Part shown: in pieces, positions 8,630 to 62,677 of the stretch
Position numbering within the stretch: the stretch's first letter is position 1
How the letters are laid out: each line of letters starts with the position of its first letter
Notes under the pieces: model-generated
Databases searched by the model: none
Seen by the model: the letters and a program-made list of their open reading frames with translations, nothing else
What the model was told of the DNA's origin: nothing
Made by a program: the position numbers and the translations under genes
Source: Podarcis cretensis
Taxonomy: Eukaryota
Assembly (NCBI GenBank): GCA_951804945.1
Contig: OX638161.1
Span: 26,226,001 to 26,290,000 of the forward strand
Length of the DNA stretch: 64,000 nt
Direction: 5' to 3'

Positions 8630-8733
8630 CTAGAATGGATCAAGAGAGCATGCCATGAATAAGCCCTGAGGCAAAAGACGGGGTGGGAGGGAAGTAGAGA
8701 TGGGGCAGGGAGGCAAGCCATGTATCTACTGAC

Positions 8734-8895
8734 CTGGCGAAAGTATCGGTTGCAGTTGATGTACTCTCGCTCATGACTGTCCTGGAGCTTGTTGTGTTTG
8801 ATGTAGAGCCACAGAGCCTGCATGATGCTGGCCCGAGTCTGAGTGTGAACGCCCAGAAGGCGAGCCAAACGGGGATCCAGCTTGTACTGGGGAGG
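8734..8895 (-). CDS. SMARCD2: SMARCD2 exon 8 (SWIB domain)
   Basis: PPQYKLDPRLARLLGVHTQTRASIMQALWLYIKHNKLQDSHEREYINCNRYFRQ. Confidence 0.96.
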
Positions 8896-25601: not shown

Positions 25602-25805
25602 NNNNNNNNNNNNNNNNNNNNNNNNNNNNNNNNNNNNNNNNNNNNNNNNNNNNNNNNNNNNNNNNNNNNNNNNNNNNNNNNNNNNNNNNNNNNNNNNNNN
25701 NNNNNNNNNNNNNNNNNNNNNNNNNNNNNNNNNNNNNNNNNNNNNNNNNNNNNNNNNNNNNNNNNNNNNNNNNNNNNNNNNNNNNNNNNNNNNNNNNNNN
25801 NNNNN
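25602..25805. other. Assembly gap (204 N)
   Basis: Run of N in SMARCD2 intron 1. Confidence 0.99.
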
Positions 25806-31084: not shown

Positions 31085-31549
31085 TATGAGAGTTTGAGGG
31101 TACGTAACACTTTAAAATGAACTACTTAAGCCATCATAAACTAACTGGCTAGATTATATATATTTTATATATATTAAAAGCACACCACACATTAAAAGTA
31201 CAGTACATTAAACAAGGCAACTTAAACTTGACCAGAACATGTTGGGTTTAAAAGGAGAAGAAGAAGAAAGGAAAGAAAAAGTACAAATTCAGATTCCAGC
31301 CGGAAGTTTCACAGTTGCTTCTCTCCCACAACCCCCAAATGCCTTTCCGTCTCAGCAGACGCTATCTGATATTGCTCCAACTTCTCGGACTCAGCAACCA
31401 TCCCAACACTGGGACGTCCCTGCCAAATACAGTCCAGACCCTCTCCATGTAGCCGCACGCACAGCTCCCAAATTCGCTTCTGCCAGGAGGCCTTTTAGAT
31501 AAAAACTCTTCTTACCTGATGCCCTCACCGATCTCAGTCATACCCAGCC

Positions 31550-32470
31550 ATTCACACGTTCCTTTTCTCCTCCCCGCAAGCCGCCCCCCTTGAACCCCCA
31601 TATCCGACTCCTGGAACGGCAACGTCTCCCTTCCAGGGAGTTAGCTATCCCACGTGTATCCCCCACCTGCATTGCTCCCTCCCTCCCCCTCTCTCTCACG
31701 CACAAACTGCCACGATCCCTTCACGTGTTTCGAAACCCCGACGTCCCCACGTGCTTGCTCCTCCACCTCGCGCTCCTTCCGCGGCACTTTCGAGAGCGAC
31801 CCGCAACAACAACACAACACACAACACGCGCGCGAGCACGTGCCCCGCCGCCCCCGCTTTACCTGGAACGGAGGCGCGTGCCCCATGGCCCGGTACGGGG
31901 TGGCCCCGGCCGGGCTGGGTCCCCGCAAAAGCCCCGGAGCTGGCGGAGGAAGGGCGGACAGCGCCGCCGAAGCAACCGGAGGGGGGCCCCCGGGCTGCGG
32001 CGGCGGCGGCGGCGTGAGAGGAAACCCCCCGCGGCCGGCCATGGGGAGCCGAAGTGAGGAAGTCGGTAGAGGAGGCAACGGCCGTCAGGCGCTCCGAGCG
32101 CGCCCCACAGAAAAAAAGGGAAGCGGCGCTGGCTGGCTGGCTGGCTGGCTGACGAAGCGGGGCGGCTCTCAACGAGCTGCCCGGCTCCTCCTCTGGGACC
32201 GCCTCCTCACAAGCAACCGCCGGAGCCCAGCCTGGGAGGGAGCGAGCGAGCGAGCGAGAGAAGCGCCTCTCGGGACCTTCGGGCCACTGCGCGCGAGGCG
32301 CCACTATCGAGCAACCGCCTCCCGAGAGACGGTCGCGCGGGGCTGGGCGGGCTCGCTTCTCCTTCTTTCTCTCACATGGGAACCCTCCTCCCCAACTCAA
32401 CTCCGCATCCAGAGGGGCTTCACACCCTCAAGAAAGTGCGTCTGCGAGGGGGGGGGGGTCCCCTCAGCCT
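31550..32470. promoter_or_regulatory. CpG-island promoter of SMARCD2
   Basis: Sharp rise in GC and CpG over exon 1; GC boxes, GGAAGT ETS-like motifs, (GGCT)n and (GAGC)n runs. Confidence 0.85.
31863..32042 (-). CDS. SMARCD2: SMARCD2 exon 1 (coding part)
   Basis: ccccATGG start; MAGRGGFPLTPPPPPQPGGPPPVASAALSALPPPAPGLLRGPSPAGATPYRAMGHAPPFQ|gtaaag, phase 0 into exon 2. Confidence 0.9.
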
Positions 32471-34522
32471 TAAAAGTGTGCAGACCGCACGACCCTGGAG
32501 CATTGTGTGTTTTCGGAAGCAACTCTTTCAATCTCGCACTTCACTGCCTGGGGGAGATGAACGTTGGCACATTTCCTGGGGAGTAAATAAATAAACAACA
32601 ACAACAACAATTTATTATTTCTACCCCACCCATCTGGCCAGGTTTTCCCCAGCAACTCTGGGCGGCTTTCAACAGAACATTAAAAACAGAATAAAACTTC
32701 AAACATGAAGAATGCACCTAAACACAGCCTGTCATTTAGTTACCCTGCCACACATCAAATTAGTGTGAGGCAAAATAAAAACAAATACTCGATCTCTTCG
32801 ACAGCAAGATATTGGTTGGCTAAGCCTGAGCCACCCCAGGCAGTTTTCTCATCTGGCTTCACTGGGAAATTCCCAGTGGCAGAAATGGGACTTGCTTTTT
32901 AACCTCCCATGCAGACCTGCCTGCTTACTAAGGTCATGAGGAGCCTGTGAAAGCTCATCTCATGGGATCAGTCAGATAGAGGGCCTTTTCTGTTTTGGTG
33001 CCCACGGTAGTGTGTGAGGCATGATGTGCCAACTAGGATGTAGTTTCTACACATGTTAAAAATGTACCTGTTTACTTAGGCCTTTGCTGACCACTGAGGC
33101 CAGCCATTTTCTGTAATGCAGTTAAACGTACTGGCTGTTAAGGCTGCTGGTGTGTTTTTTGCTTGGTATTTTTAATGGATTTTACTGTAAACCGCCTTGA
33201 GATGTTTTCATAAATAGGCAGTCTATATTTTTAATAAATAAACAACCTGGCATATTAACGGAGGGCCCACCTGTTCACCTGTGCCAACGAGGCAAAACAA
33301 GAAAGGCATCCAATAGGGTTCTCATTGCCACTACCGGTGTTTCATCACGTTTCTTTTCATTATTTATTGAATAAGGTGTTGGAAAACAGGTAAATAGCAT
33401 CTAACAGAGACTGTAGGCCTTTCACATTCTACATGGCCATTTCAGTTTTGAGAATGGATATTATCCTGTCGTTTTGTGGCATGTACTCATTTATTTTTGT
33501 CTGGGGAAACAAGAAGGCCAAAGCAGATGTCAGGCAAGTACCTTTGAGGAGACCATGAAACCAGCAGGCCCTTTTCCTCATTGCTCTCTCCCTCAACCCA
33601 GATGGCCGGAGGACCCAGATGACCCTGTGAGCCAGTGTAGTATATGGTCAGAGTGTTGGGCTAGGAGCTGGAATGGAAGACCAAGGTTCAAATCCCCACT
33701 CAAAGTGGCCTGGGCCTATATCTAATATATATGTTTATATCAATAGCAATTTTAATTAGGGTTGCCAGGTCAGGATTACCCCAAACTCTTTAAGATTTCA
33801 GGCCCCAAACCTGAAACTTAGGGTGATATAATGTTGGGTGGGCCCTGGAGATGGAGGTTAATTGGGAGAGGGTAGTGGCAGGATGCCCGCCCACCCTAAG
33901 TGTCTATGCTCTAATTTGCAGTCAGCTCTTGCTGAGCTGAAGCTTGCAAGCTGCCTGTAAATGTCTCCCCTACCTGCCAGACCACCTTTGCCTTATGTGA
34001 TTGTCTTGTCAGAACGGTATTGCTGTAACACTCTTTTCCTCCAACAGCATGGAGCAGAGTCTCTTACACAGAGGGAAAGCATTCACCCTCACAGGTAGGT
34101 AAGCTCTCTGTTGGCAAAGGCCAGGCACTCTGCTTCAACCACTGCTGGCCATAAACTCCTGAGCACTTTGGCCTTGTGGGGTCACAGCTCAGATACAGGC
34201 AGCTGAATAAGCTGCTCCTGCACACACCGAGTTCTTCTGGGTATGATCACAGTCCTTGCAGTCTCTCCCTTCACTTATGCGGGTGTGTTGAGACACCAAG
34301 CACCGCTTATTCTTTTCTCTCATTGTCAAAGGCTCAGGATAAGGCATTGCTAGAGTGACTGGTTGACCGTGTCACACATCTGTCTTTCCCTTTCACAAAT
34401 TCCTGCATCCCGGATGCTGGTCAATAAAGTTTATGACATTGCCACACATTGTGGCTTTACTGGGAGTGGTAGATTGGGATCCCTTTGCCACAACCTTCAG
34501 GAATATCTGTATATTTGAATAC

Positions 34523-35200: not shown

Positions 35201-35436
35201 GCTCAAAGTCAGTACGTACAGTATTTGTATTTTCATTCCTTCCTTCAGGAGGTGTTGAGCTGAAGCTGCCAGGTGTCTATGAGACTCCATAGAAACTGAA
35301 AGTGAAGAGTCATCACTGTCTCAAGACACCATCCCTGGCCGGTTGCCTCCACGTTGGGAAGACAGGTATGCAATGCTACCCACCCCTCCTGCTCTGCCAC
35401 TGTACCCTGGTACTCCGTCCTATTAACAATAGCTTT

Positions 35437-36479: not shown

Positions 36480-37030
36480 GGAAGAGAGAGCGCCGGCCAC
36501 CGAGTCCCTTATGCAGGAGAGAGACCCCATCAGCCACAAGAGGGCCTGCTTAGCTGCCGAAGGAGAAAGGGGAGGTCTTTCTCTCTTTATTCTTTTCTCT
36601 AGCCAGGATGTGGAATTGAGCTTCCTGGATTTTGCAGCTTGCAGCTGCTTCCCCTAAGACCCCCCCTCTCATCCCAGCTCCCTGCAAGGGGGCGAGGATT
36701 TCTCTGTAATCGGCCTTCACCATTCTCAGGCAGGCCGCACGTTGCAGTCCCTGGCTAGGTGCAGGTAAATGATCGTGGGTCGGGGGGGTGGGGTGCAAAA
36801 GATCAACCCGGCCTTTTCGATCTCCTCTGCCCCCACCCTCCCGTCGCCGCCTTTGCAAGGTCCGATTCACAAGGAGGAAACAATGGAGGCTGTGCAGGAC
36901 ATAGATGGACCCCGAGGTGGAGGGTGCGGGATGGTAACAGCATTTCGATGCAGCCGTTTCCCCCTTTGCTGCCTGGACTTAAGACATTGCCCGAAGATCC
37001 TGGACTTAGAAGGGCGGGGGGCGATGTTTC
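36480..37030 (+). promoter_or_regulatory. Weak CpG-rich region; probable promoter / non-coding exon 1 of the ZNF gene (donor CAG|gtaaat at 36764/36765)
   Basis: Local CpG enrichment not explained by a repeat, 2.5 kb upstream of the KRAB-relic exon. Confidence 0.4.
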
Positions 37031-39371
37031 ATGCAATGTGGGAAAGACAGTCAGCTTGAAGGGTGGCAAGGAGGGCCCAGTTCATTGCGATTGCCTTTTA
37101 TAACCTTTGCATCCATTTGCCCATGTCCCCCTTACTCAATTTTCAAAAGATGCTACCGCCCAACAAAGTACGTCCCTCCCCATAATTTATGGCTTCTTTC
37201 CCTCTCTCCGGCTCCCACCGCGCCCCCAGGAATTGCCCCGATTCCTCCGTAACACCCCCACAGTCTTTTGCATGGACTTCTTCTCATAGTGAGGTAGTTT
37301 TGTTTCCACGCTGCATTTTTAAAAATATTTTTAAAGTATCCGTAGAGAGTTGGAACACATTTAACACTAGCTTGGGCCCGTTGGGATAACGCTCCATACA
37401 GTCGAGGAAGCGGTTTATAATGCACGAAAGCTTGTGTTACCATAATATAATTGTTTTGTCTTAGGATGCAACAGGATTTATATTTGCCACAACAAACTCC
37501 GCTGCCCCTCTGGCATTTGCTCATATTTTGTCCTTTGTACGTTCATGTGTTTTTTCACCACCAGACAAGCCAACTGGACTGGAGGGGATTTTGAACCATG
37601 ATCTAAAATATAACTAAACAAACAGTTTTGGGGACACAAAGTACTAACAGTACAGAGAAATGAAGAGCTGTTTTGCACATTACACAGAAATCCAGGTTTC
37701 CAACCCCCCCATAGGGAGCTGTGGTCAGTCCAAGCTTTTCAACAACAAGGTGTGTGATGTGTGTGTTTTTAAATAGTTGTTCATCACATTCACACTTTTG
37801 ATTTTTAGATGTATACTTGAGGGTGTTTTTTTTAAGGTATATACCTAAAAACCACAGGGTTGTATCCTGTTTTAGTCATACTCAGAGCAGACCCATTAAA
37901 ATTAATTGACATGATTTAGTCCATTAATTGTGGAATTATGTGAACAAAACCTGGTTGGCTATAATGTCCAAAGTGGCCCAGGTTTCTTTACAGGCATTTT
38001 TCTTTTACAAATGTAAACAACGGAGAACAAGTCTTAGGTAACCAACTTATTCCCTGCAATTACTTTGTGTCTTATTTCAATGTTCCCTTGGTCTGATTTT
38101 CCAAGGACTAATAATCTGTAGCGATATATGGACATGTTCATGGTTCAGCTACCTTACAGTCTGGTGCAGCCAGAGACAACACAGACTTTTGTAGTGTTTG
38201 ACTGCTGTACAGTGAGATAGTGCACTGTGTATATAACAAAGAGCATCTAACCACATGTGGGTGTGTCAAATGTGTAATCACATCACGAAGTGTAACATGC
38301 TTTCCCCATTCCTTCCTCAAGGATGCCACAATACAAGTTGTGTAATAATAGCTTATTGATTAGTTGGTTCAGTTCCATTCACATTTTAAAATCTCTTGGT
38401 GTATTGTATGGTGTACACACCTCAGTAAAAGTCACAGGTCTCCCATGTTGTGCAGCCATTTATTTGAATTTATATCTCTACCCTTGTACACCAGCGCAGT
38501 GGATCCCCTTAAACAAGCTGTTACCTCTCAGCCTCAGTCCTTCCCCCAGCCCATCTGCAACATGGGGATAACGAAGCTGATCTTATATTACTGGATTGTT
38601 ATGTGGATTACCAAGAGGTTAATGAAGTGCTCTGAAAACTCTTCAAGAGCCATTTAAATGGTATAGTGATTATAAAAAGAAAAACCTAAAAGCCACAGAG
38701 TAGCTTAGAAACGCTGTGCAAATATGCTCTGCCAATCCAACAAAATTAAAAATATAATTGTTCAAATGAATAAACAGGCCTTAAACCTGGGGACAGAAAT
38801 AAGACATGGCTGAATCCAGTGTTAGTCATACTTAGAATAGATTGCTAAGTGGTGCGCATTCATTTCAGCGGGTCTGCTCTTGAGTTTGACTAACATTGGA
38901 GTTGCTTCTTGGTGTTCCTCTCTGGGAATGCTGTTCCATAATTATGACTCATCTCTTGAGAAAGCCTGGCACCAAACAGCCATAGAATTCACCTCTCTAG
39001 AGGAAAGCACCCACAATAGGTCCCTTCCAGCATATCCCAGAAAATGTACAGAAGGATGCAATCCCAAAGTTTTGCAAGGCCCAAGCCACTTCATCAGACC
39101 CGTCCCCATGTCATAATACGACAGAGTTTGCCCCTCTCACAACATCGTTTTCTCTTTCTGCCCCACCTGCCTCCTCCAATCTCACACCATTGCTACATGG
39201 ATATGATTATCAAGAACACTGGGTTGCCGTAGAAAGGTTTCTACAAAGTGACGTGGCACAAACTCCTTCAGTTCTTTTTTTTATTTAGGTGCTTAGCAGT
39301 AGCCTTCTTTGCCAAGAGAAAGAAGAAGGACTCCAGTCATTTCTGGCGAGAGAGTACCCGTGTGTGCCGAG

Positions 39372-39405
39372 ATGCAGGAGAGCTATGAAACAGTGATCTC
39401 GCTGG
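39372..39405 (+). CDS. ZNF gene: coding end of a degenerate KRAB-A exon (exon 39289-39405)
   Basis: ATG CAG GAG AGC TAT GAA ACA GTG ATC TCG CTG G|gtaag = MQESYETVISL, matching the KRAB-A end VMQENYETLVSLG and its phase-1 donor. Confidence 0.65.
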
Positions 39406-39708
39406 GTAAGGGATCTCACTGCTTAAAATGTCTGTGCCGCCGGACTTGAACTCAAACTTTATCTACCCAGAACTAAAAATAGCCCTGTGGCATCTCAAGT
39501 CATCACATGGAAATTGTGTTGTGATGCCAGTTTGCCTCAATCACTGACTTTAATCTCCAATGGCGCACTTTTCCCTTGTCTCCCAAGACTGATGGATGCC
39601 AACAAAATAGTGGGGACCGCACTTTGGTTTATATACATTTTTTTGCGGTGGGAAAGAGCTGCTGATTTTTAAGGCCATATAGAAGTCAATACCTTCTCCC
39701 CTATATAG

Positions 39709-39844
39709 CAGGGTTTCCCAAACTTGAGTCTCCAGCTGTTTTTGGACTACAACTCCCATCATTCCTAGCTAGCAGGATCAGTGGTCAGGGATGATAGGAA
39801 TTGTAGTTTCAAATTAGCCGGAGACCCAAGTTTGGGAAACCCTG
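39709..39844. mobile_element. hAT-type palindromic MITE
   Basis: TIRs CAGGGTTTCCCAAACTTG / CAAGTTTGGGAAACCCTG; perfect 8-bp TSD CTATATAG. Confidence 0.9.
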
Positions 39845-39942
39845 CTATATAGCATCCAAAGGCCACTGCCTAACCAAACATTTTATCCTCCAGAAGTATC
39901 TTGTTTGGCTTATCAACCTTTTTTCTGCTCCTCTCTTCTTAG

Positions 39943-40017
39943 CGGAAGAAATTGCCATTAGCTGGCCCCGGATAACTGCCTTCACAGAGACCCGAGGGCG
40001 CCGAGGTTTGGCTCCTG
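39943..40017 (+). CDS. ZNF gene: diverged KRAB-B-like exon
   Basis: Long pyrimidine tract, ttag|CG...CCT G|gtaagt; 75 nt, phase 1-1; (A)EEIAISWPRITAFTETRGRRGLAP(G). Confidence 0.65.
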
Positions 40018-41975: not shown

Positions 41976-42230
41976 GGCTAGAAATGGAACCTGAGCAGGG
42001 GCAATTGGCACCTTTGCAGGGGCAAGCAGCAGCAGCAGCGGCAGCAGCAGCTACAGCCGGCTCGAGTGAAGAAGGGATCCTGCCGGACTTCCGGAGGCAG
42101 CTCGGGGTGATCCTGCAGACTGTTGGCAAGGCACAAGTGGAGAAGATGCTGAGGGAGCTGGTGAAGGAGCAGGAGCAGCAGGGGAGAGTCAGGCGGCGCA
42201 AGAGGGTGACCCGGAGCCCCCGCCTTGGAG
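41976..42230 (+). CDS. ZNF gene: internal exon (poly-Ala, amphipathic helix, basic NLS-like RVRRRKR)
   Basis: ctcttcccag|GG CTA GAA ATG...GGA G|gtaagg; 255 nt, phase 1-1; possible second start ATG at 41984. Confidence 0.8.
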
Positions 42231-43240: not shown

Positions 43241-44745
43241 GTGATGAAGCAGGTGGGCAGAACAACTCAGAGGCCTCACATGCTGGAACGTTGGAAGCCC
43301 CCACCATCCTGTCTAGAAAGCCATCTGCGAATGAGCTGCAGGTGCCCCTCTTGTGCCCGGGGCTGGTGGCAGGCCAAAAGCAACCCATTTCAGGGAAGAT
43401 TTTTCATGGGGATGCCAGAGGGTGTAAGAACAGCCTTGTCCACCAGCAGAGCCCTCTGGGAACGAGATGGGGCCTTGAGCCCCGGGAGAGCGTTGGCTGC
43501 AGCCCGCTCCACAGCATGAGCCGGGACTCCCAGGATGCCGCGAGAATCTGGCCGCCTTTTGGCGAAAGAGCCCAGTTTTTCTCGGCGTGGCAGAAACCAC
43601 GCTTCACCCAGAGACGCCGGCGCCCACCTGCAGGAGAGAAACCCCACCGCTGCGGGCAGTGCAGGAGGACCATTGTTGTCCCGCCACAGAGATCCAGCTC
43701 ACCTCCAAATTCCGCCTTGGCTCCTGTCCTGGATTCTGCCTCCGCCTCTTCTCTTGCCTTGCCTCTGAACTCTGTAGGGGCAGCAACTACCCAGCTGCCA
43801 GGTGGGAACTCTGTTTCAGCCCAGCCCCGGAAACCCCACGGCTGCGAGGAGTGTGGCAAGCGGTTCCGAATCCTTGCCAACTTAGAGCGGCACCAGCAGC
43901 GCCACGCAGTGGAAAAGCCTCACCAGTGCCGTGACTGCGGGCGCCGTTTCCGCTGGGGCTGCCACCTGGAGCGCCACCGGCGGTCGCGCCGCTGCGTGGA
44001 GTGTGGTGGGGGGCTGGCCACGCCACCTCCACCCCCGTCCCCGCCCCCGGAACCTGACCGGCCCTATTCCTGCGGCGAATGCGGGAGGCGGTTCACCCAG
44101 CGCTCGGCTCTCAGCAAGCACCGGCGGCTGCACTCGGGGGAGCGGCCTTATGGCTGCGGAGAGTGCGGCAAGCGCTTCCTGCAGCGCTCCGACCTCACCA
44201 TCCACGTGCGCTCGCATTCTGGGGAGCAGCCCTACGTGTGCACGGAGTGCGGCCGCCGCTTCAGCGTCAGCTCGAACCTCAGCAAGCACAGGCGCATGCA
44301 CCGTGGGGAGCGCCCCCACGCCTGCTCGGTCTGCGCCAAGCGCTTCCTGCAGCGCTCCGAGCTCCTCATCCACCAGCGTGCTCACACCGGGGAGCGCCCC
44401 TACCCCTGCACAGCCTGCGGGAAGCGCTTTGCTCGCCGGGCGCACCTCAAACGCCACCAGCGCACCCACGGCAACGTGCCTGCTGCAACCACTGCCTCTC
44501 GTCACCAGAGTGCCCGTCTGCTGGCCCCCTCCGCAGCAGATACCACACCTCTTCTTGAACATGAAGGGGCACCCGATGCCCTGGAGTCACGCCCCTGCTC
44601 CAAAACACATGCTGCCGGCCCACGCCCACCAGCATCCGAGCCTGTCTTTTCAGCAGGCCGAAGTCCTGTGGGTGCTGCTTCCCTGGGCCTTCCATGGGCT
44701 GTGACCTCCTCCGCCCGCCTCCCCTTCTGTTCCAGTTCTCTTTGA
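43241..44745 (+). CDS. ZNF gene: terminal exon with the C2H2 array (6 intact fingers, 1 atypical, remnants)
   Basis: tctcagcag|GT GAT GAA in frame with ORF 43291-44745; C-x2-C-x12-H-x3-H fingers with SGERP/TGERP linkers at 43843-44469. Confidence 0.92.
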
Positions 44746-50715: not shown

Positions 50716-51463
50716 CTGATTAGAGAAGAAAGAATAGCATAGTCAAGCTTTGAGAAAGAGAGAAATAACCGCAGCCTTTTGCACCGTGTTTCCTTTGGGC
50801 ACTTCCTATGGAGCTATTTTCCATTTTTAAAAGGCAAGTGCCAGATGCTTTGATCTGTAAACCTTGCCTTATAATCCAAGATGTTTGGGAGATGGGCTGG
50901 GGGTGGGGTGGGGAGAGAGAATAGACACAGAGTGGGGAATGAGATGCAATCTTCACATAATGAAATATTTGCATGCTCAACAGCACAATCTCATTACTTT
51001 GCAAAGACAATGCTGAAATCTGGACCATGCAAACAGGTTTCCTAGAGCCCTGGGAAGAAGAGGAGGAACATGATGAGGTTAGTAAATAGTCCCTGGAGCT
51101 GGGCATGCAGTGATTCTACCAGAGCCAAAACAAAACAAATTCCCAAATCAGATTTAAGTATTTTTTTGTTTTTGCTACAAGTTTTCCATATGAAATTGGG
51201 AGATAAGCCTTGCAAGTGAATTTTAAGGAAGTTTCATGCTGCCGATTTTGATATCTCAGTGTGGTCCCCCCCCCCCTTTCTAAAACACATATATGTTCAA
51301 CAGAAGCCCTAGTTTGGAATCGCCAGTGGGTGGGGATAATGTGATTTAAAACAACATCTAAAATAAATACACTGAAGTTATTGCAAGCAATTTCAAGTTA
51401 TAAGATTCTGTATGGATTTCACACCCCTAACCCCAAATGTAGTTTCCACAAGGTTTTCCATAC

Positions 51464-51599
51464 CTGGAAGGACTCCAAGACAGAGTTGAAGTAGATGAAG
51501 ACTACCCGGGATATTTCATCTTCACCGGGGTTGACGAAGAAAAGCATGTAGGTAATGCCCAGCAAAGGAAGGAGCACAAGGGTAGCCTTCACAGCTTTT
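51464..51599 (-). CDS. CRHR1: CRHR1 exon (TM6-ECL3-TM7)
   Basis: [45 protein letters not shown]. Confidence 0.96.
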
Positions 51600-51762
51600 C
51601 TGAAGGAACAGCACAGGAGTTAAAATCCAAGCCAATTCCAGACCGGCACCCCAGTGTCCCCTCGCCAATGGTTAGGGTTAGATCTACACATGTAGCAGAA
51701 TGAAGTGGGAATGAGGTGGTAGAGTCCAAAGGGTGGACTGAGGCGAGGATCACATTCCTGAA

Positions 51763-51765
<3 letters not shown>

Positions 51766-51807
<42 letters not shown>
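51766..51807. repeat. (AT)n microsatellite
   Basis: ~21 perfect units. Confidence 0.95.
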
Positions 51808-51809
<2 letters not shown>

Positions 51810-51926
51810 CAAAGCCACTTCCTGCAAATGGGAATCTATAGCAGCAAATAGAAGGATAGCTAGAACTTCTCCTAGTGTGCTTATGCAGGGAACCTACGAA
51901 GAACAACACTTGAAAATGATATATCT

Positions 51927-52030
51927 CAGGCAGCAGTCTAGCAGCTGCATTCTGGATTAGTTGTAGTTTCCGAGTCACTTTCAATGGTAGTCCTGCGTAG
52001 AGCACATTGCAGTAGTCCAAGCGGGAGAGG
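51927..52030 (-). mobile_element. L2 LINE ORF2 internal fragment
   Basis: SRLDYCNVLYAGLPLKVTRKLQLIQNAAARLL, a canonical L2 motif. Confidence 0.85.
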
Positions 52031-52358
52031 GTTGATCCTGGTTCAGAGCAGATTCTAGAATTGACCTCTGGCTCAGAGTAAGCCCTGAGCCTTACTTCCT
52101 GCATCTGGGTTACCAGACTCGTGCCTTTTAAAAGTTAAAAGGGCTGATGAGCAGGGCTTTCTGTAGCTAGGGAGGGCAAGTGGGCCTTCTCTTCAGTACT
52201 CTTACGGTTAACAGAATCAATAAATTCTGCAAAGCAATAATAGAAACCTGCTCAATTTGCACAATATATTTGAGTTGAGGAGTCAGAACAGTGGTTTAGC
52301 ATAATCCCTGTCATAAACTCTGGCCACCCATTCCCCACCTGTGCTCTTGCACTGATAC

Positions 52359-52444
52359 CTGTACTGTATTGTCTCTGAGGTGGTCGAGGCCCGAAGCTTC
52401 GTCATCAGGATTCTGACAATGTTGAATAAAAAGATAAAGTTGAT
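52359..52444 (-). CDS. CRHR1: CRHR1 exon (TM5-ICL3)
   Basis: [28 protein letters not shown](R). Confidence 0.96.
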
Positions 52445-52661
52445 CTGGAATAGACACAGAAACGAGATTAAGTGATGGAGTAAGTGTATAAAGAAATGCC
52501 TCCATCACCACTGCAAAATGACATTTTGTCACACACACCCCCAATCAGGGTGGTGCACACCTGTTCTCTAGGGCAAGTTTTCAAAATCAGTCTGTGCTTG
52601 AGATCCACCTGAATGGATATTTCAACAGAAGTAACATTTCCTGTCCAGTTTACTCTCTCTT

Positions 52662-52675
52662 CCACTAGGGGGAGC
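52662..52675 (+). promoter_or_regulatory. Candidate CTCF motif in a CRHR1 intron
   Basis: CCACTAGGGGGAGC, close to consensus CCACTAGGGGGCGC; motif only. Confidence 0.45.
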
Positions 52676-54052
52676 TACTCTCTCAGGTATTGCAAAAACA
52701 AATGGCCATTATTTCATCTGACAGAATAATATTAATCTGAAATCTAATCTTGCTTTAAAAGTCTTCAGAGCTTAGTTGGACTTTGGAGTCAATGCTTTTT
52801 AGGAGTGTAAATAAGGACTTGGGGGATAGTGACAACCACATTCTGGATGTGATGCAAAATAAACCCTTCTCAGATAATTGATCTGTCTCCCCAAAATATG
52901 CCAAGCTCCTTTATGAAAAGCAAGGTAGTTGTACAGTAAAATTATTTACTGATCAGGCCACAGAAATTTGTATGTGGCCGTTTGAAATCTGTTTCATTGG
53001 CAGCAGAAGCTCCATCTCTCCTTACAGTTTGGACTGTCCACTGTTTGCGAAGATTAGAGATGTAGAGGGTTTCCTCCCATTTCAAGCTTGGGTTGTTTTA
53101 TTGGCCTGCCAGCAAATGCTGAATTACTTCTTGTTGCAGAGCAGTTTGTTAAAGCAAATGTGATTGATGGTTTTGCTGATAAATTAGGTCAATGACATTT
53201 CATTCCACTTGCAGCATTTTGTATTTGTCGAACCCTATTGTTTTGGCCCACAGCTATAAGTAAAGACAGATCTAACATTTTAAGAGTTGCAGGAGTGGGC
53301 TTGACAGCCCATATATATATATATTCCTGCCTCAAGGAGTAAAAAATAAAATGGTTTTGCAGATCCCCAGAGAGAGCTGGGGAGAAGCTGGTTATGGGGG
53401 ATGCCCAATGACTATTGCCTCAACATCACCAACTCATATAAGTTCTACCCCACTCCCAAGAAATCCCTGCAGCACTTTTTAAACCAGTTTTCAAAACGCT
53501 GGAAACAATTAGGGGGGAAGCGTGTCACAAGAAAGATGCATCTCTTGCTTTTTTTTTTTTTTTAAAAAAAGGACCTCCTTCCATGGGAGGAACATTTGAG
53601 AACTGGATTCCTTTACCTGAGAAGCAGCCCTCATTTTCATCATTTCACTCACCTTGTACTTCTCAAGTCAGGTTCACACTATGTGTTTAAAAGCCTATGG
53701 AATCCCAAACCCACTTATCTGGGAGTTAAGTCCCATTGAATTCAGCAGGACTTACTTCTGAGTAGACACACCCTGCTGCCACACCCTGCTGGGAAAGTTC
53801 TCAAAATGTTCCGTATGTCTTCATAACAAGATTATATGTACACACACACACAAAAACCCACACACTTTTACGTTTGTGTTTTGGGAGTGAGATCAGCATG
53901 TGAAATGGATCGCACCTATATATGAAATGGAGCTTTCTGAGTTCTATAGTAATGCCACAAAACCCATCAGGAGTGTTTTTATGCATTTGGCTTGCTTTTT
54001 ATTATAGCAAGCACTGTAGTATTACTCCAGCCTTGTCAATAAGCCAAAGTTA

Positions 54053-54304
54053 CAGCGGACGCTTGGGTTGCGAACGTGATCCATGTGGCATGCACGTTCG
54101 CAATCTGCAGCATTCGCAACCCGCGTCTATGCACACGCGGGTTACGATTCGGCACTTCTGCGCATGCGCAAAGTGTGATTTAGCGCTTCTGCCCATGCAT
54201 GACCGCCAAAACCTGGAAGTAACCTGTTCCGGTACTTCTGGGTTTTGGCGGTCCGTATCCTGAAAAAACGCAACTTGAAGCATCTGTAACCCAAGGTATG
54301 ACTG
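54053..54304. mobile_element. Tigger/pogo-like MITE
   Basis: TA|CAG...CTG|TA ends, degenerate TIRs (CTTGGGTTGCGAA / TCTGTAACCCAAG), TGCGCATGCGCA palindrome. Confidence 0.7.
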
Positions 54305-56749
54305 TACTAGTCTGCTAAGAGGCCAGTAGAACGCCCCTCCTGTGCAACCAAGATGGAAACGCAAGCTGCTAGCCTCTTTGTGGGCTTGTTCAAAAGTTGC
54401 TGTCTATCAAGCAGACGAACAGAAGGAGAGATGGAGGGATCTGTCCTTCCTGCACCAGCCCCCTCACCTACGTGGAGTTCCTTGTTGCCTGCAGCGAGCA
54501 GGTGAGTGCTTTAAAAAAGAAGAAGAAAAGGCAATATATATATATATAATGGCCTCTTCTAACATAACAAAGGAATGTTGGAAGGTGATTCAGGGTTTCT
54601 GAAAAAGTAATGAAGACCCTACTTCACTTTGTCTCTGACAAAGAGAGAATGGGATCGAGATGGAAGAATGGGATCGAGCCCAGCCCAGCCCGAAAGTTCT
54701 CCCAGAGAGAGGCTGCTTTGATTTAACGTTTGTCCAGATAACACACGAGGAACCCTCATGCCTTCTTTCGCTCTCTGGCCTCCTCCAGAAGCACTAATCC
54801 TGGGGGAAATTAGGCATGAGGATTCAGGAAGTGTTACAAAGTAGCTGCCCAGAGGGCAGAGGCGGCAGCAGTCTCCTCAGGCGGCGCGGCAGGCCCTCTA
54901 ACTAGACAAATCGCCTCCGACTTTCCCCCCAGGCCTCTGCATCAGCCTAGGCTGCCTGATAGTGGCTGCTATTATCCTCATCAAATAACATCATTAACAA
55001 ATTTGCTGGAGGCAGGGGAGGTGTGCGAATTGTGCTGTGTTCAGTTGGTAGCGGTGCCGGTGGTAGTGTTGAGCTCGTGCAAGATAGAAATTGTGCCAAG
55101 ATGGCAAAAGCAATAAGGAAAGGAAGAGTGGGAGGGATAGATGGAAGGAAGAGCCCAATTAGATGTGATGCAGGAAACCTTTGGATTATTATTTTTTTAA
55201 ATTTAAAAACCATGTCTGAATTTGATGTGGATCAGGTGGTCAAATACAAAACAGGGATGGGGGCCTCCAGCATCTTTAATAGTTGTTTATTTCAGCAGGT
55301 GGAGCTTGTCACGTAGGCTCCATCGGCTGAAAATTCCCTTTGCTATGCAACTTATTAAAGGTGCAAGTCCCCTCCTTTGCATCAGGCCACCCTAGGTGTG
55401 GAGTGCTAATTGTTTAATCACACACTGAAATGCAGAACGCCTGTATGCATGTTGGTAAGGGTGTAACATCGGAAAATTCCACTGGCTAGAAGGAAGCTCT
55501 CTCTCAGCCTTTAGCTGGGTTGATAATTAACTGTTGTTGTTCTCTGCTAGCACTCATGTGAGTGTTTAACTTTAGATCACATGATTAAGGTATTCAGTTG
55601 CAAATCTGCCATTTTGAAGGGGGTTGCCTTTTGTTCCCAGGCATAGTGAGAGAAGGATGTGATAAGAAGCCTCTCCAGGCTGGATGCAGTGTAATGCAGG
55701 CTATGGGAAAGACAGAGCACTGATCTCAGCTCTGGTTGTAATTATATATTTAATAATATATTCTTGGATATGTACATGCTTTATACAACGTTCTGGGTGT
55801 ACCATTAATTCTTTTGTACCTGCTTTTGAAGAAGTTTGGTTCGTAAAGCTTTGAATAATAATTACGAGTCTGGACAATTTTTATTCCAAAGGGAGTCAGC
55901 CTTTATGGAAATTGTCCCCTTTAAACTTTTTTCCCTGCAGGGGAAGATACGCTTGGAGCCAGTATCCCCCCCCACCCACCATAAGTGAAAAAAGCAGTGA
56001 TCAAATTCAGAGTCCCTTCCAGGAGTGCTGACTCTAGGGGGCAGACTGTTGTCATGCCCCTCAATATTCCTTAGCAGGGGTCTCAGCCCTGCAAATGTTG
56101 AGGGGGTGGAGGAGGCCAAACAGCTGAGCCAGCACAGCATCAAAGGCAAGCTCCTCCTAGTGTGAGAGAGGAGGAACCGGGGCCATTGAAGCTGCGCGGC
56201 ACTGGGCAAGGCCTCCTTGCAACTATGTGCATGTTGGGCATGTGACGTCACAGGCATGCCATGTCACGTGTGTGCCATGCTGCTGGGCCTCCCTAATCTT
56301 CAGCCCAAGGTGACGCCTCTAGTTCCCTCCCATCTAAGATGTGTGAAGATGAAACTTTCAGGACTGGTTTAACTTCATGCATGACTTGCATCACATCTTG
56401 TTTGGCTGAAAATAAATTTAAAAAGTGTCCCTCCTAGGCATTCTGCAAAAAACTGCAAAACTGCAAGGGGGTTACTTCCAGAAGGACCAGATGCAAGAGA
56501 ATGACAGAGCTATTGTATTTGGGTAGAATAGGAAATTTTAGTGCAGAATTTCCCACTGACGGATCAGTCTGGCCCCTATGATCAGCTTTTGCTGCTGATG
56601 CTCCCATTTCTGCACAATTATGAAAAGGTACTGGAGTCTTGGCCTCTTTTGTTCTTACATCACCTTAGCTGCAAAAGCAGCCTCCCCCCCCCCCCCACTG
56701 TACCCCGAAAAAGTATTGAGAGTGGGAAGGAAGGGACTTCCGCTCTTAC

Positions 56750-56822
56750 CAACAGCACCAATATCATGGGACCTTGGTAGATGTAGTCAGTATAAATCCC
56801 TGCTCGTTTTCCAAACCAGCAC
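56750..56822 (-). CDS. CRHR1: CRHR1 exon (ECL2-TM5)
   Basis: [24 protein letters not shown]. Confidence 0.96.
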
Positions 56823-57426
56823 CTGTAATTCAGAATGCAGAGCACAAAGAAACCACAGTGAGGATTTAACTTCATCCACGGTTGAAGCTGAACCAGAGTC
56901 CAGGCCTTAAATCCATTTCTGACGCAGGCTATAATAAAGAAAGAGCATCTCTGGGCCTGGGCAGAGTGCTTTTCCTTGGCCAAAACCTCCTCCTAACACA
57001 TGTAGGATGAGGAAGAAGAGCTTCAAGGCTGGAAGACCATGACCTAAACTGTATAAAATGAAAAACGTACGGCACATTTCACACACATCTATTTGATGAA
57101 AACAAACAGCCAGCATATTTAGGGATAGGTAAGTGTCAGGAAATGTCAGAAGGGGAGGTTTTTAACCCTTCCTCCCATGCCATGGTCCCAATGAAAATTA
57201 TCACCCACACCCCTACACCCCAATACTGCTGTTTGCTTCCAGAAAGAAACAGCTGCTATCACCAATGTCAGGCTTCCCTGTCAAAACAAATAGCAGCTTT
57301 CGGGAAGAAAATGAAACCAGTGCAGTTGGGAAGGAGGAGTTGGGAGAGAAAATGAAACCACCCTCTACCATGCATGGTACCACTACCCTGATCAGGCCCA
57401 CTGTCTCATTCCTGCTATTTATTTTC

Positions 57427-57427
<1 letters not shown>

Positions 57428-57458
<31 letters not shown>

Positions 57459-57460
57459 TC
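57428..57460. repeat. (TTTC)n microsatellite
   Basis: ~8 units. Confidence 0.9.
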
Positions 57461-58413
57461 CTTCCTTAAGCAAGACACAAGAAACCATGCATTTATTGCA
57501 TCGCCCAGCTTGAACCTCATAATCTGAGTTACTGTCACCACTCACCACCCCTCAAGACTATAGTTGCTGAGAAAGGCAGGGAAAGGTGTCAGGGGAAAGA
57601 ACAATTTTTTAAAAACCCGCCAAGAAGACCTTTCTAAGTGGCTCGGAACCCCAAACAAGAGGGTGGTGACTGGTTTCAGCCATAGCCACAGCCAGGACTT
57701 AGCTTGAAAGTGAGAAGTCATGGCTGATAATTAAGGCAAATGGCGGCCAGCCCAAATCAATCCTGCTCACCTGCATGATTAATGGCCATGGAAGCAACTT
57801 GCCAGGGGGCTGCTATGTCCTCCATTAGCAAGTCACTGGGAAAGCAGGATCAAGGGCCCAGAATGAAAGGCATAAGACCCTCTCATTAAATCCCAGGCTG
57901 CTTTAACTGGGGGGGGGGGGCTCCCACAATGGTGTTTCATTAGCAATGCCCAGTGCTGTGTTTACACTTTAAAAAAATAAATCACCAAGTAGTTTAATTC
58001 TGCTACCTCCATAAATTGTGCAAATTTGTCTAGATTTGCTGAATCTTCCTATTTTAGTCTACTTTTTCTAGCTACAGAACAGAGAATCGGGGAGCGCGCT
58101 GAACGTTCCTTCCTTCACCTCTGCTCAACCCACTACGAAGGGCCAAAGGACGCAGAGATGTTAGGAAATTTGGGGTGGGACCTCTAGCTTCTTCAAAAAT
58201 TCTGTTTCTTATAAAAGTAGCTGCAGGGGTTGGGTGGGGAGAGCAAGCTGGGTTTGAAATGCAGCGCTTGGGAAAAGAGTGGGTTAATCCCCTTCCACTC
58301 CTGCACTGTTTTCCTGGTTCTAAGTTGCTTGCAACACTCCCACAAGGGGCCGCCCACTTGCCAATCACCTGACATCATAATCATGTCAGGTGAGTTGCTT
58401 TTGCCCTGGGTGG

Positions 58414-58452
<39 letters not shown>

Positions 58453-59105
58453 TTTTATTTATACCCCACCCTTCCCAGTTCAGAAAATTGGGCTCAGGGC
58501 AGCTAACAACAAATTTAAAACACTTAATTGATGCAACAAAAAAACAGCATAAAATACAGTATAAAACGTGAATAACAATAAATTCAGAATTAAAAAATCA
58601 ATTTAGAAGGAAAATCCATCCAATAAACATTAGATGATCACCAGGGCTAGCTGGCTAAATTAGTCCTATTTGGGCCAGTGAAGAGACCAGGGGAGAATTA
58701 GCTGTGGGATCCCAGAGCGGGTAATCTTCATAAAAAGGGGAGGGGAAGGGAAAGAAGGGGAATAAAAGATCAGGCTAAGTTCAAATTGAAAGCCAGGTGG
58801 AATAGCTCTGTCTTACAGGCCCTGCGGAAGGAAGTTTAATCCTGCAGGGTCCTGGTCTCATGGGACAGAGCATTCCACCAGGTCGGAGCCATCACTGAGA
58901 AGGCCCTGACCCTGGTGGAGGATAATCTAACTTCCTTAGGGCCTGGGACCTCTAAACTATGATTATTCATGGACCTTAAGGTCCTCTGCGGGGCATACCA
59001 GGAGAGGCAGTCCCGTAACTACGAGGGCCCTAAGCCACAAAGGGCTTTAAAGGTCAAAACCAGCACCTTAAACCTGACCTGATACTCCACCGGGAGCCAG
59101 TGCAA
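58414..59105 (-). mobile_element. L2 LINE 3' fragment with (ATT)n tail
   Basis: LHWLPVEYQVRFKVLVLTFKALCGLGPS*LRDCL on -; stem-loop 3' end; (AAT)n at 58414-58452. Confidence 0.85.
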
Positions 59106-60107
59106 CAGATACACGGCCCTCGAAGCCCTGACGGCCAGCTGATTGTTGGTGCTAGGAGAGAGCCAAGCAGGGCACTCACTCTACACAGGTCTTTGCAGGT
59201 GCCACTGATCCTATGGGCTTCTTTTCGGCCCAGCAGTTGCTTTACCTGCCTCACACCTGACATGTGATATCAGGTGGAGGGCAGGTGGGCTTGGCAGAAC
59301 AGCCTCATGGGCCTAATGGGGAATGCCTAAACTGGCCCACCGGTCAGAGGTTTCCATTCCCTGAACTAATCCTATCCATTGGGAGTAGGAGATCCCTGAA
59401 ATTTAAGCACCTACATCCAAGGTTCTCAAAGTGGATGGTACTACCCCCCCCCCCCCGGATGGCAGGATTACTTAGCAGGGTGCCAAAAGGTGGCAGGGAG
59501 TGCTGGAGATGTAAATGACTATCAGACTTTGAAAAGCTGGTATCACTGGATCAAGCATTCATCAGTTTTGCTGATTAATTAAACTAAGTAATTGGACTTT
59601 GCACGTGCAATTAATTGCCACTGTTTCAAATTTCATTGCATTATCATCTCCCTTGGTGAGTGGTGCATTTCACTATTCTGAGTAGTGCTTTTTATAGGTT
59701 AGGGGGCCCTGGGGGTGAGTTTATGGAATGAAAGGAGCTGTGGCCTCCAAAATGTTTGAGAGCCACTGATCCACATTCTTGGTGCAGGTAAAGAGCTTTT
59801 TGTTTGGTTCATGGGTGGTTGGGGTGGTAGTTGGCAGAGTGGGGGAAGAACACTGCCTGCCTGTAAGCAAGGCCACTCCTGATTTCTTGCTCGTCTGCTA
59901 AAATCACCCCCAAGTCTGCTCCTGATTGCCTTTGTGGAAAGCAGAGAAATGCCAGCAGAGCTTCCCTCCTTCCACCCCCAGATCTCTCCCCGTAGCACCC
60001 ACTCCAAGGCTGTGCAAGCCTGCTCTAGAAGCCATTACCATAGCAGCAGAAAAGCAGGATGGGGGAGAGAGAGAGAGAGAGAGGGAGAGAGACTAGGGCT
60101 GACTTAC

Positions 60108-60168
60108 TTCTCGTTGTCATAGTAGAGTTTCCCAATGGCCCAAGCGATGATAATGGGGAAAGGGATGC
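60108..60168 (-). CDS. CRHR1: CRHR1 exon (TM4-ECL2)
   Basis: (C)IPFPIIIAWAIGKLYYDNE(K). Confidence 0.96.
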
Positions 60169-60765
60169 CTGTGGATGAAAGCAAAGACGGGTCTCAGGGC
60201 ATCTGGTGAGGAATGACCTGGCATTAAGGCAAGGGGTTGTGGTAGTTGGGGGAGCAAATGGGATATGTGGCCTCAGCTCAGGGACCCACCCATACCGAGC
60301 GAAACTATCACAGTGCTATTTCCTAAGCTCAGACGCAGAGCCTGTTATTTCTTGTGTGAGGGCTCAGTGCTCCTATAATGAGTGAGAATGAGAGTGCTTC
60401 TGAGCATCTGCAGAGCGAATAGGTTAATTTGTGCCCCTGGAATCATCGCAGCTCAGCCTCAGGCCCTGTTGCCCATCCTAGAATGCATGATGGTGCCTCT
60501 GAGAGTATAACAAAGGCACACTGGGTCCTTATGGCTTAACTCCAGAATGTGCTTTCAGATTCTGAAAAGGTATACATGATAAACAAAAAAGTACTCCTGA
60601 ACATCAGCAGAGTCCTGAGTCTAATCCAACCCCCTTGAATCTTTCGGCCAACATGGGACTCAAACCCACGACCTTGAGGTGGAGAGTCTCATACTCTGAG
60701 CTATCCCTTTGTCGCCTGGCTACCCTGCAGGATATGCTACAGCCACCCCTCTCCTTGCCACTCAC

Positions 60766-60919
60766 ACCAGCCAATGCAGATGAACATCCATTTCCTCAGC
60801 TTGTCTGTCGAATAGGTGAGGACAATGGCCGTGTGAAGGTAGCAGCCCTCGCCAAACATCCAGAAGAAATTGGTGACGTGGAAGTAGTTGTAGGCAGCTG
60901 TGACGAGGCGGCACCAGGG
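60766..60919 (-). CDS. CRHR1: CRHR1 exon (TM3-ICL2-TM4)
   Basis: [51 protein letters not shown]. Confidence 0.96.
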
Positions 60920-61966
60920 CTGTGTGTGGTGAGGAACAGGCAGAATGGATGAATTAAGAGGAAACAGCTCCCCACAATCCTAGCCACAAGCAAGCCTACC
61001 CTACCTCTATGAGGACACAGCTACTCTGAACAGCTTAGCATCGTCCCCTTTCGCCTGCTAACGGCTGAACATTCATAAACAGTGAGGCGGAGGCTCCATC
61101 CTTCGGCTTTAAAATTCCCAACCCTTCAGATTGAAGCAAAGCCAACTGCAAGATAGCTCAACTCATCTGCAAATAAGCTACGGCATCACTCTCAAGATGC
61201 TAGAGCTCATGGAAATTCAACTTCCTTTTCACACACTAAGGAAACCTCGGCTGAACCTCAATTGCCGGGTAGCTCAGATCAACAGACTTGAAAGTGTTCC
61301 TTGGCTCGGCCTTCAACAACATGGCACCCTCTAGAAATTAGGGGCGGCAATTCCACCCAGCCTCAGCCAGGCTACCTTAGCTTCTGCTAACAAATCAAAC
61401 AAGGAGATACCAGGATTAGAATTTCATTTTTGGTTGTAGGACCGGTCATGGTGAAATACTCTGCAGTTTAACTTGCAAATATCTGACAGGTTTATGGGCC
61501 TGATCAGCTGGATCTTTCAAACTCTTAAAGACATGCCAATGTTTTCAAGGTGCTAAAGCAAAGTGATCATGATCATGTTGGTCTATATACTAATTGGTAG
61601 CATTTCTTCCTAGGCCTACCTGGAGAAGCCAGGAAGTGATCCTGAAACCTTCTGCATGTTGCAAAATGCTCTACCACTCAGCTCCAGCCCCTTGCCAGAG
61701 GCCTTATCACCTAGAGATTCCATATGTCTGGATTTTTCCATACATTACAGGGATTTCAAATGAGGAATTGACATCGGAGTGGGGGGATTTCCAAAAAGCA
61801 GCATTTTGTTCTGGATCTTAGGCAAGTCAATTGAGAAAGTGTGTTTTTTTGGTATTTTTTGTGGGGGGAAGCTCAACAACTTTTAGGGTGTCCTGGTTTT
61901 TATTTTTTGAAATATGGCAACCCTATCATCACCAGCTCACAATATCTTAGGGCTTTACATATAGAT

Positions 61967-62088
61967 CAGGGTTTCCCAAACTTGGATCTCCAGCTGTTTT
62001 TTGGACTACAACTCCCATCATCCCTAGCTAGCAGGACCAGTGGTCAGGGATGCTGGGAATTGTAGTCCACAAACAGCTGGAGACCCTG
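61967..62088. mobile_element. hAT-type palindromic MITE, same family as 39709; part of the right TIR deleted
   Basis: CAGGGTTTCCCAAACTTG...ACCCTG; TSD ATATAGAT / ATAGAGAT. Confidence 0.8.
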
Positions 62089-62269
62089 ATAGAGATGTAT
62101 GTTTTCAAGGCTTGACTTTCATATAACAGATCAAGAAGCAGTCGCCTCAAAAATCATGGGGAAAGTTTCTCGATCCCCCTTGTTTTTTTTGTTTTGTTTT
62201 TCAAAGTCCAGCAGGCATCCAAGCCAAATTACTAGCACCAGATTTGAGGCCAGGCTGAGGAGAACCTAC

Positions 62270-62390
62270 CACGTTGCTTTCATGGACTTCTGGATTCATG
62301 GTGAGCTGGACCACGAACCACGTGGCGTTCCGCAAAATGAAGGCAGTGATCAAGTTCCAGTGGATAATGTTTCGTAGGCACCGGATGCTC
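62270..62390 (-). CDS. CRHR1: CRHR1 exon (ICL1-TM2-ECL1)
   Basis: [40 protein letters not shown]. Confidence 0.96.
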
Positions 62391-62677
62391 CTGGAGGAGA
62401 AAAGAAAAGAGCGTGCAAAATGGCAGCATAGGCCCAAAGGATGAACTGCCCCACTCTCAAGGCAGAACCCCTCCCCTCGCATGTTACTGCCTTGTCCCTA
62501 CCTCTCTTTAATTTTTAGATCAGCCTTCCCCAGCCTGTCACACCCTCCAAATGCTTTTGGGACTTCAACTCCCATCAACCCCAGCTAGCATGGCCGTGTA
62601 GTGTGTAAACATCTGGCCAGTGGCAGGCAGGCGAGGGCTGCTTCAAATGATCTCATGGGCCCTTTGGCCTGACTCAC

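Follow-up and report, generated by a model that had tools for sequence, protein, structure and literature searches.

In canonical KRAB-A/B zinc-finger proteins such as ZNF10 and ZNF93 (PF01352), it is the KRAB-A box that meets TRIM28 (KAP1): in the available sections of the report on the ZNF93-KAP1 structure, KRAB-A supplies all contacts, and Stoll et al. name 13 ZNF93 positions that touch KAP1 (PMC9753469). An N-terminally truncated KRAB-A is described for the splice isoform ZNF746a, in which the loss of 15 residues cost the protein its stable association with TRIM28 and DUF3669 supplies repression and oligomerisation (accessible text of PMC6923878). DUF3669 KRAB zinc-finger proteins (KZFPs) are ancient amniote KZFP-derived genes that combine a disabled KRAB with an added conserved module (accessible portions of PMC6923878 and bioRxiv 10.1101/2025.03.01.640934). 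The variant-KRAB KZFPs (Helleboid et al. 2019, via excerpts of PMC10547255 and PMC9753469) are old and conserved and carry full-length boxes with substitutions; among older conserved KZFPs, interactomes are often devoid of TRIM28 (excerpts of PMC10547255). According to the available part of PMC3971581, Liu et al. count no more than three human KRAB-ZNFs that have an orthologue in amniotes outside the mammals, and KAP1 binding by lizard and bird KRABs is not to be assumed.

The zinc-finger gene described here lies in a 64,000-nt stretch of the Podarcis cretensis genome (contig OX638161.1; hereafter the window). It shares with the canonical proteins the last 11 KRAB-A residues, encoded by the 34 nt up to a phase-1 donor, the C2H2 array in the last exon and, through its paralogues B and C, a position bordering a KRAB cluster. 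It differs from them by lacking box positions 1–31 and KRAB-B, by the one or two extra conserved exons of its family and by its slowly evolving fingers. Its KRAB-A is N-terminally truncated like that of ZNF746a, but 31 residues rather than 15 are missing, and the truncation is constitutive here. Like the DUF3669 genes, it joins a disabled KRAB to an added module; unlike them, it has the module after the stub rather than before it, no DUF3669 match, no detected transposon origin and matches in sauropsids only. With the variant-KRAB KZFPs it shares age, conservation and a likely independence of TRIM28, but it retains a stub instead of a full-length box. The gene is of KZFP descent but outside KRAB membership; it most plausibly acts in the manner of DUF3669 or variant-KRAB proteins and belongs to neither group.

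RefSeq and UniRef models (for example XP_053218080.1) have the same exon chain and start, but they bear automatic, inconsistent names ('ZNF774-like', 'ZNF135-like', 'ZNF260-like', 'EZFIT-like') and show no KRAB origin or N-terminal domain in the Pfam column. Titles and abstracts yielded no description of this family, most subscription papers being outside the scope of the search, and the accessible parts of PMC6381762, PMC2865497 and the 2025 DUF3669 preprint do not mention it. The gene itself has a RefSeq entry and truncated KRABs are known from other genes; the module is apparently undescribed.

Exon structure and splicing of the zinc-finger gene

The coding chain of the gene (hereafter A) joins 39289-39405, 39943-40017, 41976-42230 and 43241-44745 into 622 codons plus a stop. 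The splice joints come from sequencing runs (X1, X10 and others) that belong to related species and whose RNA status is only guessed. The features are as follows.

31500..32590, no strand assigned: CpG-rich region by CpG counts, likely a bidirectional promoter (putative role) shared with a minus-strand SWIB-domain (SMARCD-type) gene
End near 32583: likely first exon of the zinc-finger gene; one X10 contig links 31863-32583 to the downstream exons
35249..35366, plus strand: 5′ non-coding exon spliced to 39289; end from an X10 contig, start placed by acceptor consensus
36718..36764, plus strand: alternative upstream exon spliced to 39289, start undefined; one contig of run X1, donor CAG/GTAAAT
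39289..39371, plus strand: 5′ UTR portion of the first coding exon, with TAGs at 39294 and 39300 and undetectable KRAB-A similarity; acceptor used in X1, X10 and X14
39372..39405, plus strand: KRAB-A tail MQESYETVISL (box positions 32–42), opened by the start codon and closed by the ancestral phase-1 donor; tail matrix, HMM and conservation
39943..40017, plus strand: phase 1-1 exon of 75 nt without likeness to KRAB-B, the first of the conserved blocks specific to the family; splice joints, exon also in paralogues B and C
41976..42230, plus strand: 255-nt exon with Ala-rich spacer, second conserved block (two predicted helices) and basic cluster; invariant columns, AlphaFold2
43241..44745, plus strand: last coding exon, in which a variable linker is followed by two C2H2 fingers, the one canonical and the other degenerate, and by a tandem array of five more; sequence and Pfam

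The first-pass annotation had described the 117-nt exon 39289-39405, flanked by ttttatttag and GTAAG, with its internal ATG at 39372 and the two TAGs in the same frame, the 75-nt phase-1 exon and a 622-aa open frame, all of which we verified in the sequence. It had also proposed that these exons are spliced to the fingers. Joints 39405->39943 and 40017->41976 (GT..AG) were seen in three of four runs, from three studies, and a single contig of a related species spans exon 39289-39405 through to the finger exon. No splice joint was seen in run X5, and run X15 covers only 39359-39405. The acceptor at 39289 is in use, as contigs carry upstream exons ending at 35366 or 36764; the loose end that precedes 39287 in the X10 contig matches window 35335-35364, directly followed by AG/GTATG. 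The exon 35249..35366 contains a 6-codon upstream ORF from ATG 35279. An assembly error at exon 39289-39405, which would have undone the first-pass reading, is unsupported: a DNA-like run that covers all 30 bins, possibly the assembly's own sample, matches 39099-39550 with 0 differences and 0 gaps.

The spliced product is identical to Podarcis raffonei model P0120 at 616 of 622 residues. Pfam finds PF00096 in seven stretches of the 3′ exon (E 8.5e-29), and the five-finger core has the fingerprint QSAK QSDI VSNK QSEI RAHR. The basic cluster of exon 41976..42230 is a possible nuclear localisation signal; this exon has one paralogous exon in the genome.

Several neighbouring features were recorded. 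The intronic segment 36865-36933 resembles N-terminal extensions of cobra and Pogona models; it may be an alternative 5′ exon or a promoter that has been conserved. A SMARCD-type gene, perhaps SMARCD2, stands head to head with the zinc-finger gene on the minus strand, with a SWIB-domain exon at window 8728-8889 and a Pro/Gly-rich first exon at 31863-32042. Four exons of a secretin-family GPCR (PF00002; window 51422-62497, minus strand) converge on the zinc-finger gene. No growth-hormone (PF00103) exon was found near the window, and window 25602-25805 is a run of 204 N.

The KRAB-A stub and the N-terminal module

As a KRAB-A reference we used 30 loci taken from 150 KRAB-A matches scored in this genome. 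The first-pass annotation gave 127 nt as the canonical length of a KRAB-A exon, and this holds for 25 of the 29 parsed lizard loci (24 distinct); exon 39289-39405 falls 10 nt below this standard. On a matrix built from the last 34 nt of the 127-nt exons, the exon end 39372-39405 scored 32.1 bits, as compared with 13.3–51.7 bits for real tails left out one at a time and −7.5 bits for the best non-KRAB sequence among 21,445 GT-anchored 34-mers; the tails of paralogues B and C reached 37.5 and 48.2 bits. ATG 39372 coincides with the Met of the KRAB-A M-x-E-N-Y motif, and MQESYETVISL aligns to positions 32–42 of the lizard KRAB-A HMM. The tail score and the position of the Met together establish, at the level of sequence comparison, that the last 34 nt of the exon are a true KRAB-A tail, beyond chance, in agreement with the KRAB ancestry first proposed. 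This family is not alone in having an exon with a KRAB-A tail only: the genome has another at C2:108952079 (minus strand; tail 29.9 bits, head −138).

The 83 nt before ATG 39372 revealed no KRAB trace (10.7 bits versus a mean of 12.2 for mononucleotide shuffles, p 0.815; eight intact KRAB-A heads score 95–126 bits). A small deletion in the YRDVM motif had been suspected because another frame reads AVAFF...VCRD; that frame scores −2.8 bits against the lizard KRAB-A HMM, and a frameshift is undetectable in a stretch that carries no KRAB signal. Pfam likewise found no family at E<=10 in any of the three frames of the exon or in the 75-nt exon, and PF01352 appeared in the N-terminal sequence of one of ten family members, only at E 0.3. 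Paralogues B and C have a non-KRAB leader of about 40 nt before the Met, whose KRAB tests (B, p 0.02–0.035; C, p 0.05; uncorrected over six tests) are at most a hint of similarity. The two TAGs, which had been read as part of the lesion, are missing in P. raffonei P0125, where the sequence reads G-V-C-Q-E-P, and in run X1; they are thus recent drift in a 5′ UTR. The open upstream frame of P0125 bears no likeness to KRAB, and none of the annotated N-terminal extensions exceeds −0.4 bits on KRAB-A, where the control reaches 27.0.

The 75-nt exon had been placed in the KRAB-B position. It scores −2.1 bits on a KRAB-B HMM (profile of eight KRAB-B sequences; control, 46.2), a value equalled or exceeded by 298 of 401 reported shuffles, and its BLOSUM comparison with the eight sequences gives p 0.68; by these tests it does not resemble KRAB-B. 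In gecko model P0106, which is unverified, the 75-nt exon is followed by a real KRAB-B, and this model suggests that the 75-nt exon is a separate exon inserted between KRAB-A and KRAB-B. The roughly 290 kb that surround paralogues B and C yielded no KRAB-B exon of the P0106 type; P0106 may be chimeric or may represent a fourth paralogue.

AlphaFold2 predicts, for representative P0008, helices at residues 3–17 (across the exon joint), 19–27, 67–81 and 83–107 with a disordered spacer, in a weak model (pLDDT 66, pTM 0.28, 10 sequences). Searches with the module gave a best E of 3.1 against PDB sequences and no usable match in the ESM Atlas; with the low-confidence model, Foldseek returned nothing at E<=0.001, and VIA-align reached a best Z of 4.2. 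A homodimer prediction scored 0.07, with the alignment unused, and weighs neither for nor against self-association. Among ten N-terminal sequences Pfam gave no convincing family and no DUF3669 at E<=10, and SCAN (PF02023) is absent from these, from the window protein and from the module-bearing proteins.

Conservation, paralogues and age

The Met start and the N-terminal module of about 100 residues are 93–98% identical over 19 squamate orthologues, from geckos to snakes, and the fingers 96–98%. Pairwise identity is 0.98 for residues 1–11, 0.95 for 12–36 and 0.98 for 73–104, as compared with 0.64 for the linker; invariant columns number 10/11 in the stub, 20/25 in the 75-nt exon and 27/32 in the second block. 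The 23 squamate matches comprise 17 that start at MQE[SN]Y, four with unrelated extensions and two partial models, and none has PF01352. The module also occurs in alligator, several birds and a turtle. The same Met is the start in alligator, budgerigar, turtle and penguin gene models; the ostrich model lacks a Met at that position and starts three codons upstream. Reptile orthologues had been suggested as a place to look for an intact KRAB; PF01352 is present in 0 of 47 module-bearing proteins, 46 of which are named sauropsids; these come from the best 7,991 candidates scored, and clustering can hide members. Within the same limits, no mammal or amphibian was among the matches. When 1.84 billion representatives were searched with a profile, 26 matched at E<=0.001, and five of the nine looked up were named sauropsids; P0105 (E 1e-4) is probably an unrelated, Ig-type chance match. 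By these comparisons the stub is evidently under strong purifying selection.

A degenerate pattern search of the genome returned exactly three copies, A in the window and the head-to-head pair B and C on contig C2, at about 108.85 and 108.87 Mb. B and C each carry the KRAB-A tail and the same 75-nt exon; the helical exon is present in A and B and missing in C. All three share the fingerprint QSAK-QSD[IK]-VSN[KT]-QSEI-R[SA]HR. B and C adjoin GABBR1 and intact KRAB genes, at the edge of a large KRAB cluster, and a seriema gene model in which the family N-terminus is fused to GABBR1 suggests that birds have the GABBR1 linkage too.

Trees group squamate A with alligator, ostrich, hawk and penguin, and squamate B with budgerigar, kea, manakin and turtle, with support for the A/B split of 96/92 in the module tree (19 rows) and 100/100 in the five-finger tree (15 rows); the trees are unrooted and short, and paralogue C and partial models were excluded. 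From this grouping, the truncation predates the A/B duplication, which in turn is older than the squamate-archosaur split about 280 million years ago. As far as the sequences tell, then, the loss of most of KRAB-A is older than that split and preceded duplication into at least three paralogues. The 3′ ends of B and C, with the last fingers and the C-terminal tail, are 88% identical over 704 nt, possibly by gene conversion between inverted neighbours, and this identity can blur orthology.

Other genes near B and C or resembling them were noted. An intron of B holds an open 576-codon ORF of a Tigger-type transposase (C2:108845404-108847131, minus strand), and in Podarcis and Zootoca models P0085 and P0086 the KRAB stub and the 75-nt exon are joined to this ORF, a possible lacertid stub-transposase fusion according to these models. 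B and C flank another zinc-finger gene, the fourth (C2:108858600-108866772, minus strand; kept in Phrynosoma, P0083), which has its apparent start at a Met midway in a degenerate KRAB-A, followed by a degenerate KRAB-B; the cluster thus appears to hold a second case of head loss, milder than the first. Pogona P0027 has its start Met some 14 residues inside the KRAB-A box and keeps KRAB-B; its first fingers (HSAK QSDI VSTT) are similar to the A/B/C core, and it is possibly an intermediate relative. No P0027 counterpart was found in about 290 kb around B and C.

TRIM28 contacts and the reading of the gene

When the start Met is taken as Met33 of ZNF93, contacts D8, V9, I11, F13, E17, L21, Y29 and V32 lie before the start, and the stub region holds M33, E35, N36 and the aliphatic positions 40 and 43, N36 being Ser in the window gene (positions as named in the available sections of PMC9753469). 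Judged from these missing residues, the gene likely no longer recruits TRIM28. A weak TRIM28 binding by a rearranged KRAB, in which the stub and the 75-nt exon form the domain and a new helix replaces the lost contacts, would make sense of the retained equivalents of M33, E35 and the two aliphatics, of N36 kept in B and C, of the near-invariance of the stub and of the modelled helix across the exon joint. Against it stand the eight lost contacts, the far smaller truncation that sufficed to cost ZNF746a its binding and the frequency of TRIM28-devoid interactomes in older conserved KZFPs (as far as the cited excerpts go), and we consider it unlikely. The stub could instead be kept only for its start codon and splice donor, in a module that serves structure or targeting (nuclear import, stability) and has no effector role. 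Such a module might well be short, partly disordered, without family or fold match and basic at its end, as this one is; its three blocks, however, are at 0.95–0.98 identity as constrained as the DNA-contacting fingers, beyond what a start codon and a donor need, which makes this reading quite improbable.

Initiation at ATG 41984, with the two small exons as a 5′ UTR of regulatory role, would use a better context (G at −3 and +4) than that of ATG 39372, and one snake paralogue B model, P0084, starts there. The first 36 codons, however, diverge mainly synonymously between paralogues (third-position differences: A/B 20/30, A/C 17/25, B/C 18/20), which marks the sequence ahead of Met 41984 as coding, and paralogue C keeps these codons without the exon that holds the second ATG. 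We regard this start as highly improbable. The evidence for translation of the stub from Met 39372, the internal KRAB-A Met of the first-pass proposal, is strong but indirect, the starts being those of gene models. The same proposal saw a KRAB repressor in mid-decay, which a small deletion and two stops had recently disrupted. The shortened exon does retain its two splice sites and ends in a true KRAB-A tail, and AVAF does align to HMM positions 9–12, but KRAB signal is missing upstream of the Met and from the annotated extensions, the TAGs are not shared by P0125 or run X1, and geckos, snakes, alligator, birds, a turtle and two paralogues have the same start, with a stub 0.98 identical in squamates; decay is barely credible.

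We think it probable that A is an expressed, spliced zinc-finger gene, likely started at the KRAB-A Met, whose product is likely a TRIM28-independent DNA-binding regulator with a conserved helical module predicted to bind protein. In this account, a KRAB zinc-finger ancestor in the GABBR1-side cluster would have lost three quarters of KRAB-A from its 5′ side, and translation would then have begun at the internal Met. The 75-nt exon would have been gained after the head loss, followed by duplication into A, B and C, with a further helical exon common to A and B, and by a move of A, now on another chromosome than B and C, all before squamates and archosaurs split. As no full-KRAB sister gene was found, this order is a reconstruction. 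The stub would have become part of a new helical module, itself conserved, for protein interaction. The five-finger core would bind a conserved DNA site, and the module may recruit a cofactor or self-associate, as DUF3669 does in ZNF746/ZNF777, in a repressor or an activator.

Beyond this, we tentatively entertain a bolder possibility, that the last helix turn of KRAB-A and the new exons form a KZFP effector of the sauropsids' own, through which the three paralogues work together via a TRIM28-independent partner. It is equally conjectural that the three, with one DNA-recognition core, act as hetero-oligomers or competitors in an arrangement fixed throughout sauropsid history.

On the sequence evidence, the family is an old, stable redesign and not a gene caught decaying. 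KZFP censuses based on a KRAB HMM would score it as 'zinc-finger only' and so miss it. It is a further KZFP offshoot, deeply conserved, apparently confined to sauropsids and equipped with an undescribed module, and points to a route of KZFP domestication in which an internal Met of KRAB-A is turned into a start codon. If the module is indeed a sauropsid effector domain, it would be the sauropsid counterpart of DUF3669, and the family would be among the few deeply conserved KZFP descendants of birds.
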